From Candidatus Aenigmatarchaeota archaeon (GTDB lineage: Archaea; Aenigmatarchaeota; Aenigmatarchaeia; PWEA01; JACQIF01), in contig CP066684.1 in assembly GCA_016432325.1 (NCBI GenBank), forward strand, positions 64,001 to 128,000: a stretch of 64,000 nt of DNA, written 5' to 3'. A program made the translations under genes and the position numbers. Positions 4,683-63,372 of the stretch are shown piece after piece. The notes beneath the pieces are model-generated. The model had not been told where the DNA came from. It searched no databases and saw only the letters and a list, made by a program, of their open reading frames with translations. Each line of letters starts with the position of its first letter. The stretch's first letter is position 1.

Positions 4683-5201
4683 ATGCGCATAAGATCCGTC
4701 CAGCCGAGAAAACAGCGCGCGTACGTGTACAACGCGCCCCTGCACACTCGCCAGAAGCTCGTGCACGCGGCCCTGGACAAGAAACTGCGCAAGGAATACG
4801 GTCGGCGCTCGCTCGCGCTGAGGAAGGGAGACAAGGTCGAAGTGATGAGAGGCTCGTTCGCCGGCGTCAGAGGCGAGATAAAGGAAGTGGACCTCAAAGA
4901 CCTGCGAGTTACGGTGGACGGCGTGAAGAGGAAGAAGGCAGACGGAACCGAAGTGCAGGTTCGCATGCATCCCTCGAATTTGAGAATCATCGAAGCCCTG
5001 GTGGACGACAAGAAACGCGCTCGCATAATAGAGCGTTCGGGAGGCAAGGTCACACTCACAAAGAAAAAGACAGAGAAGGAGGCAAAGGCCGCACACACGG
5101 AAGGGGTAAAGTGTCCCCTATGCAGCGAGACGTTCGAAAACAACGCGGCGGCCAACGTGCACGTGACAGAGAAGCACAAGGAGTACGCACAACAGCAATG
5201 A
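4683..5201 (+). CDS. rpl24: 50S ribosomal protein uL24 with C-terminal C2H2 zinc finger
   Basis: QPRKQR, KOW motif KGDKVEVMRG, HPSNLRII; tail CPLC-x12-H-x4-H. Confidence 0.96.
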   Translation: MRIRSVQPRKQRAYVYNAPLHTRQKLVHAALDKKLRKEYGRRSLALRKGDKVEVMRGSFAGVRGEIKEVDLKDLRVTVDGVKRKKADGTEVQVRMHPSNLRIIEALVDDKKRARIIERSGGKVTLTKKKTEKEAKAAHTEGVKCPLCSETFENNAAANVHVTEKHKEYAQQQ

Positions 5202-5911: not shown

Positions 5912-6478
5912 ATGCAGGAGACAAAGATGGAAAATGCGATGCGCGACATTCGAACGCGTAGCGTTCGAAGCGCTTCGAACCCGATGTTCGAAGGAGTGCG
6001 CGTGGAAAAGGTGACGCTCAATATAGGAGTCGGAGAAGGAGGAGACAAGCTCCAGAAGGGAGCGACTCTCCTGAACGCTCTCGCCGGCCAGACCGTTTAC
6101 ATGGCCAAGGCGCTGAAGCGAACGACCTTCGGCACGCCGCGGGGCAGGCCCATAGGCGCGAAGGTCACTCTCCGCGGAGCGAAGGCCGAGGAGTTCATAA
6201 AGCTCGCGTTGCGTTCAAAGGACAACAAGATCCCGGAGAAGGCGTTCGACAGCACGGGCAACCTCTCGTTCGGGGTCGCGGAGCACATAGACCTGCCGGG
6301 CGTGCGTTACGATCCCAAGATAGGAGTATTCGGCATGGACGTCTGCATCACGCTGGGAAGGCCCGGATACAGGGTGAAGAAGAAGGCCCGTCCGACGCGC
6401 GTGGGAAAGACGCACCTGTTGACGCGCGAGGACGCGATGGAGTTCATGCGCAAGAAGTTCGGGGCTGAACTCGTATGA
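5912..6478 (+). CDS. rpl5: 50S ribosomal protein uL5 (alternative start 5927) carrying an in-frame palindromic insert
   Basis: [32 protein letters not shown]. Confidence 0.96.
5949..5992. repeat. in-frame double hairpin insert in rpl5
   Basis: two TTCGAAC-n-GTTCGAA hairpins. Confidence 0.8.
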
Positions 6479-10792: not shown

Positions 10793-12313
10793 ATGGCAGC
10801 ATATACAACCGCCCAGAACGCCAATGAGGGACCGGTAAACGTCCCACCGCAAACCGTTCAGCCGTCAGCGCAGTCTCCTGTTACACTTTCTCTCCGCGAC
10901 GTATACGTCAAGTTCATCAACTGGCTGCCCGGACTGGACAAGCCGAGGGAAAAGTTGCTGTTCAAGACGAAGCTCATATGGACCGCGGCCATGCTGCTGT
11001 CGTTCTACGTGATGAGCGAAATCCGCGTCTGGGGTTCCGGCGACCCCGCGGGCAACCTTGCCCTCGCAGAGACGGTCCTCGGTTCGCAGATAGGAACTCT
11101 CATGACACTCGGCATCGGGCCCATTGTTACGGCGTCCATAATACTACAGTTGATATCGGGCAGCGGCATGATACGCATAGACACGTCGACCCATCAGGGC
11201 CGCGCCGTTTACCAGGGAACGCAGAAGGTTCTGGCCATCGGCTTCGCGTTCTTCGAGGCGATCGCCTTCGTGATGTTCGGGGCTGTCCCCCCTGCCTCTG
11301 CGGGTCTCGGGCTCGCCGCGGCCGTGATGTTCCAGATAGCTCTCGGAGGACTCATAGTGATACTGATGGACGAGGTCGTCTCCAAGTGGGGCATCGGTTC
11401 TGGCATATCCCTCTTCATCGCCGCAGGAGTCGGCCGCGAGATATTCATACGCGCCTTCAACTTCGTCGGCCAGGGAGGGGTCATAAGGCCCGTCGGAAAC
11501 ATTCCCGTTGCCGTCAGCAGCTTCATGTCAGGGGCTCCGGGCAACGCCTTCATAGCGCTAGTGCCGATAGCCATCACGATTGTCGTGTTCTTCATAGTCG
11601 TCTACGCCCAAGCAATGAAAGTGGAGATACCGATGACGATAAACGCCCTGTTCGGCAAGCGCGTGGCGCCGGGATGGCGCGGCCTCAGTCACAGGTATCC
11701 GCTCAAGCTTCTCTACACTTCGAACATCCCCGTCATACTGATGTCCGCGCTTCTCGCCAACTTCCAGCTGTGGGCGACGCTTCTACAGTCCCGCGGATCG
11801 CCGATTCTCGGTACGGTCGGAGCCAGCGGGATCGCTGAAACAGGACTCATCTCGTGGATATCGCCGCCGACCCAAGTGCCTTTCTCCGAGATAATGATAG
11901 CCGCTCTGGATCCGTCGGTTTCGGTCAACCCCGACGCGTGGAGGTGGATTACGTACGCCATCTTCCTCACGGCCGGCTCCATAATATTCGCGTTCTTCTG
12001 GGTCAACACGGCAGGTCTCGATTCCAAGACGATGGCGCAGAAGATGCATAACGCGGGCTTCGGCGTGCCGGGCTTCCGCAGCGACGTTCGCGTCGTGGAA
12101 CGCGTGCTGGACCGCTACATACCGGCGCTGACCATACTCTCGGGCGCTTTCATAGGGCTCCTCGCGTCATTCGCGGACTTCGCCGGCGTGCTGGGCAGCG
12201 GCACCGGAATCCTGCTCGCAGTCATGATAATATACAACCTCTACGAACAGATAGCCCAGCAGCACGTGGAAGAGATGCATCCGATAATGCGCAAGTTCAT
12301 GGGTGGTACGTGA
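10793..12313 (+). CDS. secY: preprotein translocase SecY
   Basis: LGIGPIVTASII, KWGIGSGISLFI, YTSNIPVIL, GSGTGILL. Confidence 0.97.
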   Translation: MAAYTTAQNANEGPVNVPPQTVQPSAQSPVTLSLRDVYVKFINWLPGLDKPREKLLFKTKLIWTAAMLLSFYVMSEIRVWGSGDPAGNLALAETVLGSQIGTLMTLGIGPIVTASIILQLISGSGMIRIDTSTHQGRAVYQGTQKVLAIGFAFFEAIAFVMFGAVPPASAGLGLAAAVMFQIALGGLIVILMDEVVSKWGIGSGISLFIAAGVGREIFIRAFNFVGQGGVIRPVGNIPVAVSSFMSGAPGNAFIALVPIAITIVVFFIVVYAQAMKVEIPMTINALFGKRVAPGWRGLSHRYPLKLLYTSNIPVILMSALLANFQLWATLLQSRGSPILGTVGASGIAETGLISWISPPTQVPFSEIMIAALDPSVSVNPDAWRWITYAIFLTAGSIIFAFFWVNTAGLDSKTMAQKMHNAGFGVPGFRSDVRVVERVLDRYIPALTILSGAFIGLLASFADFAGVLGSGTGILLAVMIIYNLYEQIAQQHVEEMHPIMRKFMGGT

Positions 12314-12984: not shown

Positions 12985-13943
12985 TGAACAAGGATTGGCT
13001 CGTTCGTTCGGAAGAGATATCAGACATGCGCTTCGGCTGCTATCCCGGCGCGCGTACTGTCGAAAATCACATAAAAAACGGAATCGTCGTCATAGACAAG
13101 CCCCCGGGTCCGACTTCCCATCAGGTTACGGCTTGGGTCCGCGACATGCTTGGTTTGAAAAGGGCGGGCCACGCAGGCACGCTTGACCCCAAGGTTACGG
13201 GCGTGCTGGTGACGGCTCTGGAGAACGCGACGAAGATAATGCCCGCCTTGATGGGCGCGCAGAAGGAATACGTCGCCGTCATGAAAGTTCACCGCGACGT
13301 GACGGACGCGGAGCTCGCGGACGTCGTTAAAAAGTTTCTCGGCAAGATAAGGCAGACGCCGCCGCGAAAGTCCGCGGTCAAACGCGTCGAACGCACACGC
13401 GAAGTGCAAGAACTGGAAATTCTGGAGCGCGACGGCAACGACGTGCTGATGCGCGTTTCGTGCGAGGCCGGAACGTACATCCGCAAGCTCATATCGGACA
13501 TGGGTGTGCTTATCGGCGGTGCGCACATGGCCGAGCTGCGTCGCGTGCGCTCCGGATTCTTCGGCGAAAGCGCGCTCGTGCGCATGCAGGACCTCAAGGA
13601 CGCGTACGACGTCTGGAAGGAGACAGGCAACGAGGACGAAATCCGCAAGCTCGTCATGCCTGTGGAAGAGGGCGTTGAGCACCTGAAGCACGTGATCGTC
13701 AAAGACACGGCCATCGACGCTTTGTGCAACGGCGCGCCGCTTTCGAGCGGCGGCGTGCTGAGGCTTGAAAAAGACGTTCGCGCAGGCGATCTTGTCGCGC
13801 TGCTTTCCGCCAAAGGCGAGCTCGTCGCGATAGGCAAGGCCGCCGCCGGCGCGGAAGCAATCCACAAGGAGCGCGTGATGGCCGTGCGCACAGACCGCGT
13901 GGTCATGGCCCGCGGCGTCTATCCGAGGACGTGGAAGGTTTGA
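12981..13943 (+). CDS. cbf5: H/ACA pseudouridine synthase Cbf5 with PUA domain
   Basis: DKPPGPTSHQV, GHAGTLDPKVTG, EAGTYIRKL. Confidence 0.96.
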   Translation: MMNKDWLVRSEEISDMRFGCYPGARTVENHIKNGIVVIDKPPGPTSHQVTAWVRDMLGLKRAGHAGTLDPKVTGVLVTALENATKIMPALMGAQKEYVAVMKVHRDVTDAELADVVKKFLGKIRQTPPRKSAVKRVERTREVQELEILERDGNDVLMRVSCEAGTYIRKLISDMGVLIGGAHMAELRRVRSGFFGESALVRMQDLKDAYDVWKETGNEDEIRKLVMPVEEGVEHLKHVIVKDTAIDALCNGAPLSSGGVLRLEKDVRAGDLVALLSAKGELVAIGKAAAGAEAIHKERVMAVRTDRVVMARGVYPRTWKV

Positions 13944-39657: not shown

Positions 39658-39783
39658 TTACTGGTCCCTCCTCGCCTTTCCGAGTGTACGAGACTGCGGT
39701 CTCGACATGTTCGGCCGAGGGCCGAACTTTTCGAACCGCTGTTCGAAAATGTCGAAACTTTGTTTCGTACACGGTAAATCCAT
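39658..39783 (-). repeat. multibranch gene-start element
   Basis: TAAATGGA duplicated; four nested hairpins; 41-aa uORF ends in TAA abutting the ATG. Confidence 0.85.
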
Positions 39784-40365: not shown

Positions 40366-42006
40366 ATGCGTCTCAAGGGCATCTCGGGCCTTATGGTTGC
40401 CATCTTCCTGACGCTGATAGCCGTAGGACTGGCCTTCGCTTTCCTTGTCTTCGGTCGTTCAACTCAGGAGACCTTCGAAAAGGAGGTAGGCGGAGGAGTG
40501 GAAGGGCAGATAAGCTCTCTGCAGAGCGGGTTGGCAATAGCGAACGTCAACGCGAACAACGTCACTGTGAAGAACACCGGTCGCACGAACCTCGACGTCT
40601 CTAAGATTGACGTGCTTCTGGACGGGAAAAAGGCGTCGACGTCCGCGACAGCTGCCACGATTGTTCCGGGCGGCACTGCGGTCCTAACGTTGACGGGTTT
40701 TGTTCCTGGTGTGCATGCAGTTCGTGTGACAGGACCCGGAGGCGTCGGAGACGAAGGCGACTTCGGAGTCGCACCGTCTGGCGTCGTCGCGCTGTGGGAT
40801 TTTGAAGACGAAGACGCGAATCCGGACGATTCGGTCGGGACGAACAACGGCAGACTCAACGGTTCGACCGTGCTGCTCTTGCACTTCGACGAGGGCGCCG
40901 GAACAAAGGCTTACGACTCGACAAACTACAAGAACGACGGCACGTTTGTGAATAATGCTCTTTGGGGAGCCGGAGTGTCCGGCAACGGCGTGAAGCTCGA
41001 CGGCGTCGCCGCCAGCATTACGGTGCCGAATTCGCCTTCAGTAAACAATATTGGACTGTTCACAACAGAGGCGTGGTTCAGGTGGGACGCCCAAGGAGTC
41101 TCTCAGGTTCTCGTAACAAAATCAGACGCCCATCTCTACATAAGCGGCGCAAACGTGCTGAGCTCGTACTTCGGGGGATCCCCGTGCGCTTCCGGCGTCT
41201 CAATATCCAGAGGAGCGTGGTACCATAGCGCCGTAACTTTTGACGGCACCAACGTGAGGATTTACGTCAACGGGGACCTCAAGGCCACGTGCGCGCGGAC
41301 AGGCAACACAGGCACCGCGAACCTATTCGTCGGGCAGAACGGAATAGGCGGCCAGTTTTTCAACGGCACAATAGACGAGGTCGCGATACATGGGCGTGCA
41401 CTGTCTGCGGACGAAGTTGGTTCGCACTACGACGCGAAGCGCGCGCTGTTCTCCGAATACGTCAAGGGCTTCGCAGGAACGGCCGTGCGCTTTGACGGGG
41501 TTAATGATGATGTGGAAGTGCCCAAATCTGCCGCGCTCGATCCGGGCGCGCAGGTCAGCCTTGAAACGTGGATAAAGAGCGATCCGTCGAATCCCATGAA
41601 CACGTGCTGCCAGGGTCTTGTATCGACGGACTTCTACAACATCGGCGTGTCGACCGGCGGCGTTTATTTCGCCATAAGCTCGAACAGCGGAGCCAGCTAC
41701 CCCTTCACCGGCACGGTCGCGGTCTCCTCGGGCGTGTGGCACCATATCGTCGGAACCTATGACGGCACGGCTGTGCGGCTGTACGTTGACGGCGCGCAGG
41801 CGGCGAGCGCTCCGGCCTCTGGCGCGGTTTCGCCGATGATGGCCAACAGTTTCCTTACCGTGGCGTCCGAGGACGGTAGGACAGCATGCGGCGCTCAGTG
41901 CATAGGCGTCCGCTACTTCAGGGGCGACGTGCAATACGCCGCGGTCTACAATCGCGCCCTGAGTGCGCAGGAGATAAAATCCATATACGATGCATCCACG
42001 GCTTGA
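40366..42006 (+). CDS. class III signal peptide protein with two LamG domains
   Basis: KG|ISGLMVAIFL; two WxHxxxTxDG / AxxxRALS sets. Confidence 0.88.
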   Translation: MRLKGISGLMVAIFLTLIAVGLAFAFLVFGRSTQETFEKEVGGGVEGQISSLQSGLAIANVNANNVTVKNTGRTNLDVSKIDVLLDGKKASTSATAATIVPGGTAVLTLTGFVPGVHAVRVTGPGGVGDEGDFGVAPSGVVALWDFEDEDANPDDSVGTNNGRLNGSTVLLLHFDEGAGTKAYDSTNYKNDGTFVNNALWGAGVSGNGVKLDGVAASITVPNSPSVNNIGLFTTEAWFRWDAQGVSQVLVTKSDAHLYISGANVLSSYFGGSPCASGVSISRGAWYHSAVTFDGTNVRIYVNGDLKATCARTGNTGTANLFVGQNGIGGQFFNGTIDEVAIHGRALSADEVGSHYDAKRALFSEYVKGFAGTAVRFDGVNDDVEVPKSAALDPGAQVSLETWIKSDPSNPMNTCCQGLVSTDFYNIGVSTGGVYFAISSNSGASYPFTGTVAVSSGVWHHIVGTYDGTAVRLYVDGAQAASAPASGAVSPMMANSFLTVASEDGRTACGAQCIGVRYFRGDVQYAAVYNRALSAQEIKSIYDASTA

Positions 42007-46943: not shown

Positions 46944-47039
46944 ATCGAACTATTGAAACTGCGTCTCGGAACGCCGCGTTCCGAGTATTTCGAACCGAAG
47001 TTCGAAAAGTTTCAAAGTTCCTCCAGAAGGTGCGTATAA
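46944..47039 (+). repeat. multibranch gene-start element before a pilin
   Basis: ATCGAACTA/ATGGAACTA duplication; TTGAAACT/AGTTTCAA enclosing two hairpins; TAA abuts the ATG. Confidence 0.85.
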
Positions 47040-63178: not shown

Positions 63179-63372
63179 GCGCGACTCCCTCCTTCTCCGC
63201 GCTGCACGGGAACCGCAGTCCCCGGCATTTTCGAACAGCGGTTCGAAACTTTACGAATAGCTATTCGTAAACTTGCGACCGCGTCGCAAGAGTTCGACCG
63301 AAGGCCGAACATGTCGGGAAGCTCCACTTCCCGTACAGGGAAGGATGAAACCGCGTGTTTCGTGCCCTTCAT
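63179..63372 (-). repeat. 194-bp multibranch element between the transketolase subunit genes
   Basis: ATGAAGGGC 9-bp direct repeat; seven hairpins; shares modules with the 39658 element. Confidence 0.9.

Follow-up and report, generated by a model that had tools for sequence, protein, structure and literature searches.

A two-hairpin palindromic repeat inserted in frame in the ribosomal protein uL5 gene of an Aenigmatarchaeota archaeon

Can a short palindromic repeat settle in frame within an essential gene, that of a ribosomal protein, in a very small archaeal genome, and is it then read as protein? The question is raised by the gene of ribosomal protein uL5 in the window analysed here, a stretch of 64,000 nucleotides from a genome that consists of a single 875-kb contig with 56% G+C (hereafter G000). 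The gene stands in the usual order uL14-uL24-eS4-uL5-uS8-uL6, and the nearest uL5 proteins in the databases are named Candidatus Aenigmarchaeota or Aenigmatarchaeota, of the DPANN lineage. A start codon at ATG 5927 has AGGAG just upstream and is the one used in the 183-aa database copy. Searches of the window gave no family match in Rfam at gathering thresholds and no tRNA with ARAGORN.

The initial annotation had described about 16 extra residues between MRDI and RVEKV, encoded by four TTCGAA hexamers within 44 bp that form two tandem hairpins. This description proved accurate, with exactly 16 additional residues (Table 1), hexamers at 5949, 5964, 5974 and 5987, and two perfect hairpins whose arms are TTCGAAC/GTTCGAA in both cases. 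The loop and 3' arm of hairpin 2 encode the residues NPM..FEG. The uL5 junction shows no clear target-site duplication, and within 5945-5995 the stems have neither a GTAG nor a CGTC head beside them. The insertion point falls in the loop of a small hairpin that the native sequence forms in empty alleles by means of a 6-bp palindrome.

Table 1. Location of the uL5 insert, its parts, and related hairpin elements. Positions with two dots are in the window; the others are in G000 or in contigs of the same-genus genome G001.
Feature	Location	Strand	Remarks
uL5 (ribosomal protein L5) coding sequence	5912..6478	+	Pfam Ribosomal_L5 and Ribosomal_L5_C
In-frame insert, 48 nt (16 codons)	5947..5994	+	Excision gives the 15-nt junction sequence of the congener
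Hairpin 1	5949..5969	+	9-bp perfect stem, 3-nt loop
Hairpin 2	5973..5993	+	8-bp perfect stem, 5-nt loop
18-nt perfect palindrome across the hairpin 1/hairpin 2 junction	5963..5980	.	Alternative pairing; matches its own reverse complement
5' arm of native 6-bp palindrome flanking the insertion point	5939..5944	+
3' arm of native palindrome	5998..6003	+	One G-T wobble in G000
ATG in frame within the loop of hairpin 2, encoding the Met of the re-created NPM	5984..5986	+	Possible alternative start; no Shine-Dalgarno upstream
GAAGGAG at 3' edge of insert, 5 nt ahead of in-frame GTG 6002	5990..6004	+	Possible alternative start
Intergenic array, four hairpins	39689..39767	.	One TTCGAAC hairpin
Intergenic array, two hairpins	46965..47007	.	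One TTCGAAC hairpin
Intergenic array, five to six hairpins	63229..63343	.	One TTCGAAC hairpin
CysRS insert, 45 nt, double hairpin	G000 191295-191339		Directly before KMSKS-type motif; absent from four relatives; gene not found in G001
L7Ae insert, 48 nt	G000 384450-384497		After codon 7; no start codon downstream; absent from G001 and four others
ArgRS insert, 45 nt	G000 492392-492436		N-terminal domain; absent from four relatives
Lhr helicase insert, 48 nt			Absent from G001 and three others
PolB (family B DNA polymerase) insert of G000, 54 nt	G000 40416-40469		Before KKRYA motif; absent from G001
PolB insert of G001, 48 nt, TTCGAAC	G001 L103:2996-3043		Different site; absent from G000
ATP-grasp protein insert	G000 582364-582409
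Single hairpin, 21 nt (7 codons), in frame	G001 L143:2137-2157		Orthologue of G000 gene 439324-440133

Comparison with relatives showed that the segment was inserted. The same-genus genome G001 is uninterrupted at the site (NAMREV-RIEKV, without a gap), and removal of the 48 nt from the G000 gene leaves the same junction. In the uL5 proteins of 38 relatives (G001 and 37 other genomes) no extra segment was present in any, so the segment is not one that relatives conserve at protein level while lacking the palindromic DNA. Among the best 120 homologues from 5.8 billion proteins, the insert occurred only in the window's own protein, and four lineages at 66-76% identity had uL5 without it. Two more empty alleles were read as DNA, in contigs L175 and L176, and the native palindrome, with the insertion point at its apex, is present in these two and in G001. 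A search of genome contigs for related loci returned distant archaeal uL5 genes only, none of them informative. Taken on sequence comparison, the uL5 insert most likely arose after the lineage split from its sequenced congener.

The insert was also found, without a single difference, in contigs of four groundwater metagenome runs from a single study, whose samples may be those from which the genome came. It is therefore not an artefact of a single assembly. No insert-less allele was seen in the contigs of these four DNA runs; since contigs drop rare variants, they speak to presence only. One metagenome assembly breaks within the insert, as repeats tend to cause.

When about 25 genes in the ribosomal protein cluster were set against the contigs of two relatives, no second hairpin insert was found, and uL5 alone carries one. 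Two other features of this region were recorded. In uL24 (window positions 4683-5201) the C-terminus is extended and bears a zinc-finger-like CxxC...HxxxH motif; the extension aligns in L175 and L176 and appears to be typical of the clade. At 11651-11677, SecY contains a 9-residue insertion that is specific to G000 relative to G001 and L175; it looks unlike a family hairpin and has a fold energy of -8.7 kcal/mol.

The two hairpins of uL5 belong to a dispersed family. Five occurrences of TTCGAAC-N(1-12)-GTTCGAA were counted in the window, where shuffled sequences led us to expect 0.01. The view that the same module recurs in three other elements of the window was borne out by copies at 39730, 46989 and 63230. 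Genome-wide, G000 contains about 600 perfect short hairpins with a stem of at least 7 bp (about 230 in shuffles), and 110 arrays of two to five hairpins, 61 of which are intergenic by crude gene calls. Stems vary within the family, a common pattern being pyrimidine-CG-purine-AAC, a loop, and GTT. The TTCGAAC hairpin is found 14 times in G000, 8 times in G001 (a 540-kb assembly) and once in G003, a genome of the same order, and not at all in the other 38 genomes. Near-identical copies of uL5 hairpin 1, loop included, lie at G000 position 522065 (21/22) and at G001 L117:1463 (22/23). Hairpin arrays are poor in stop codons, with 4.8 of 6 frames open; the figure is 3.2 for shuffled sequences and 3.6 for intergenic DNA outside the arrays.

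Within G000 we also noted an intergenic sub-family of arrays, each of four hairpins, in which the stems are conserved and the loops vary (13806-13896, 273227-273270, 370026-370070, 448810-448853 and 607609-607678). They are bracketed by TTTAAA-type boxes and may be promoter regions. Further arrays (546725-546765, 441671-441755, 424122-424209 and 703833-703898) lie directly upstream or in the leaders of several prepilin-like genes, which have the look of class III signal peptides.

Profile searches of G000, which is 90% complete, gave no match to Y1/RAYT (PF01797), where the positive controls were detected, nor to TnpB or DDE_Tnp_1. With no transposase of these three families at hand, the argument for mobility is the pattern of presence and absence between genomes.

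This pattern extends well beyond uL5. The family has entered other essential genes in frame, with parallel inserts, absent from relatives, in the genes of CysRS, L7Ae, ArgRS and PolB, and it has likewise entered Lhr. A survey of 313 orthologue pairs between G000 and G001 showed that hairpin inserts account for 4 of the 7 indels of at least 15 residues. Every verified insert has a length divisible by three (21, 45, 45, 48, 48, 48 and 54 nt). Their peptides differ in sequence between copies and are hydrophilic in every copy, rich in Ser, Arg, Lys, Asn and Glu, because of the TTCGAA/CGGAA word content. PolB carries inserts reciprocally, with each genome having its own and lacking the other's, which argues for movement of the family in each of the two lineages.

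We consider it reasonably probable that the uL5 insert, a copy of a genus-restricted palindromic repeat, is read through as part of an N-terminal tail and represents selfish or neutral DNA. A 48-nt, two-hairpin copy of the dispersed repeat has entered the 5' part of the gene and would persist there because its length is divisible by three, no in-frame stop interrupts it, and it lies in a flexible N-terminal tail. Ribosomes starting normally, at ATG 5912 or ATG 5927, would read through it and produce a uL5 with about 16 extra hydrophilic residues before the first beta-strand. The comparisons establish the insertion, its place in the repeat family and the in-frame inserts in other genes; from these we infer that the insert is translated and that the ribosome tolerates it. 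An AlphaFold2 model of the 183-aa form, built from a 15-sequence alignment, gave residues 1-21 a pLDDT of <50, with the fold beginning at about residue 23, and the insert is thus most likely a disordered N-terminal tail as modelled. The solved uL5 of Pyrococcus has about 18 residues ahead of its PM motif, which makes a longer N-terminal tail plausible for the ribosome. Selfish or neutral DNA is the most likely status of the insert, rather than adaptation, and on the simplest reading such DNA persists at sites where frame and fold stay intact.

One feature of the insert complicates this account. Its last residues (NPM and three more) are placed by protein aligners on the conserved NPM-R-x-x-R motif, and the spacing from Met to NIG is 12, compared with 11 in 106 of the 120 homologues. 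Judged by the alignment, the gene product may be described equally well as an N-terminally extended protein with a re-created NPM motif, and the insertion may in the end have lengthened the N-terminal tail instead of splitting the motif with a loop. Such an echo at the end of the insert is not predicted by a simple model of selfish insertion. In uL5 the echo pairs NAM with NPM, and similar ones accompany other N-terminal inserts: L7Ae repeats EDLSK, ArgRS repeats EPPE, and the ATP-grasp protein has a near-repeat of 7 residues. In each case the echoed residues are spelled with different codons.

The placement of the motif also bears on whether the insert is translated at all. It is unlikely that the inserted DNA is bypassed, with uL5 being made from the in-frame ATG 5984 or GTG 6002; the hairpins would then stay untranslated or belong to a leader ORF, and might tune how uL5 is expressed in the operon. 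With protein aligners and with phmmer, the residues that follow the insert fall on the conserved NPM-R-x-x-R-I-EKV motif, and one close homologue (P0004) is called from exactly that Met, but ATG 5984 has no Shine-Dalgarno sequence and lies partly within a stable stem. At its 3' edge the insert creates GAAGGAG 5 nt before GTG 6002, and GGAG-type motifs are enriched before G000 starts (199 of 560, versus 99 in the control). However, the upstream start with its good AGGAG is intact and in frame, so that ribosomes starting there must read through the insert. Di Nocera et al. caution that a REP in the 5' end of an ORF is frequently non-codogenic (PMC3733652), a point that applies to N-terminal copies such as this one; against it, the same family lies unavoidably within the reading frames of CysRS, Lhr, PolB and L7Ae. 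In these frames as predicted, no alternative start can avoid the internal inserts, nor the L7Ae insert, which has no start codon after it.

A different origin for the segment was considered in view of the echoes, namely that it was built in situ from a shared core hairpin together with inverted and direct copies of the local target. Construction of this kind would explain why the end of the insert re-creates the residues just before it, at uL5 as well as at L7Ae, ArgRS and the ATP-grasp protein. It would also suit the native codons of ArgRS, which themselves form one hairpin arm, and the position of the uL5 insertion point at the palindrome apex in every empty allele. We nevertheless regard it as quite unlikely. 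Both uL5 stems are the commonest stem of the family (TTCGAAC) and are not specific to the target, and the CCGATG motif of the loop is seen again in the Lhr insert, and almost so in the PolB insert of G001, so NPM may come from the family itself. Genome-wide, the upstream flanks and the 3' ends of arrays showed no excess DNA similarity (mean 4.55, versus 4.24 in the control), and a mirror comparison of flank with array likewise gave no excess over permuted pairs; a model of target copying was for this reason not adopted as the main reading. We know of no DNA process that recodes synonymously, and this counts against construction in situ. A native palindrome was tried as a general target and rejected, being clear at uL5, weak at L7Ae and the G000 PolB site, and absent at Lhr and the G001 PolB site. 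There is some chance, though a small one, that an undescribed mechanism makes or places the hairpin modules, targeting the apex of small native palindromes and copying the displaced residues, sometimes with a start codon, to a position beside the protein core, so that insertions in essential genes 'heal' themselves.

Removal of the 48 nt from the mRNA by the tRNA-splicing endonuclease, as an intron of the bulge-helix-bulge type, appears very improbable. G000 does have a splicing endonuclease gene, archaeal pre-mRNA introns are known for cbf5 (PMC2738675), and a relaxed hBH motif (a 4-bp outer helix, a 3-nt bulge, a 4-bp helix and a 3-nt bulge) brackets exactly 48 nt at 5944/5992. Yet this motif has no inner helix, competes with hairpin 1 and lies outside the minimum-free-energy fold, while its outer helix is the native palindrome that is also present in empty alleles. 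No such motif was found at the borders of the five other in-frame inserts, and freedom from stops and a length divisible by three are needed for translation but not for splicing. It is hardly credible, finally, that an ancestral segment disappeared from the relatives, or that the segment is an assembly artefact. In favour of these readings, it occurs in a single species-level lineage, and one study is the source of all the DNA evidence. But an ancestral segment would have had to be lost precisely and independently in the congener, in three other close lineages and in all outgroups, and against an artefact the contigs of four separately assembled runs agree base for base.

Reading the insert as a translated copy of a dispersed repeat would have several implications. 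The invasion of essential genes by coding palindromes, seen so far mainly in Rickettsia and Wolbachia and in one methanogen, would extend to the very small genomes of DPANN archaea. The inserts amount to natural loop-insertion experiments on core machinery, including a ribosomal protein, two aminoacyl-tRNA synthetases (in one of which the insert adjoins the KMSKS catalytic loop), the replicative polymerase and L7Ae. They also offer a tractable case of tiny hairpin repeats that move without a recognisable transposase. For annotation they carry a warning, as genes in DPANN metagenome assemblies can be miscalled on account of such inserts and the start codons within them. Our literature search found no prior description of such elements for DPANN or Aenigmarchaeota.

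Among known systems, archaeal bulge-helix-bulge introns such as that of cbf5 share with the uL5 insert a short structured segment in an archaeal coding sequence and the presence of the endonuclease, but the uL5 borders have no canonical bulge-helix-bulge and the other inserts lack even the relaxed motif. MITEs resemble the family in being small, non-autonomous-looking and multicopy, with presence/absence variation between related genomes. We rejected assignment to MITEs: no core is bounded by distinct terminal inverted repeats, the uL5 junction shows no clear target-site duplication, and searches for a parent IS or transposase (Y1, TnpB, DDE_Tnp_1) found none.

The behaviour of the family also matches that of intragenic dimers of the GTAG- or CGTC-tagged REPs, hairpins of 20-40 bp that often occur as dimers or clusters and are mostly intergenic; a minority lie inside genes, where the dimers encode 20-30 aa (Di Nocera et al. 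2013, PMC3733652). Hairpin size, dimers and clusters, the mostly intergenic distribution with a minority in genes, and the N-terminal caveat are all matched here. The family was not classed as REP/BIME, as it has no GTAG/CGTC head, G000 has no Y1/RAYT, and the host is an archaeon.

A further match in behaviour is provided by the coding palindromes of Rickettsia (RPE, about 100-150 bp; PMC10969869), Wolbachia and M. jannaschii (Ogata 2000/2002 and Suyama 2005, going by the summaries in PMC10969869 and PMC2996958). Like these, the family is a dispersed repeat in a reduced genome that is inserted in frame in unrelated housekeeping genes; it shares with the RPE type its absence from orthologues, its typically unstructured segments and the lack of a known dedicated transposase. 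The differences from RPE are a size of 45-54 nt (15-18 aa), two small hairpins with stems that vary between copies, a DPANN archaeal host, the absence of a conserved encoded peptide, and the echo of target residues at several inserts. Membership of the Rickettsia RPE families proper was rejected, the uL5 insert being 48 nt long and the peptides differing between copies. The family is thus set apart from RPE and REP by its size, the missing GTAG/CGTC tag and RAYT, its DPANN host and its variable stems, while the M. jannaschii elements enter this comparison by description only. What the uL5 insert has in common with the RPE-like class as a whole is that it belongs to a dispersed palindromic family and is a stop-free, in-frame insertion absent from orthologues.
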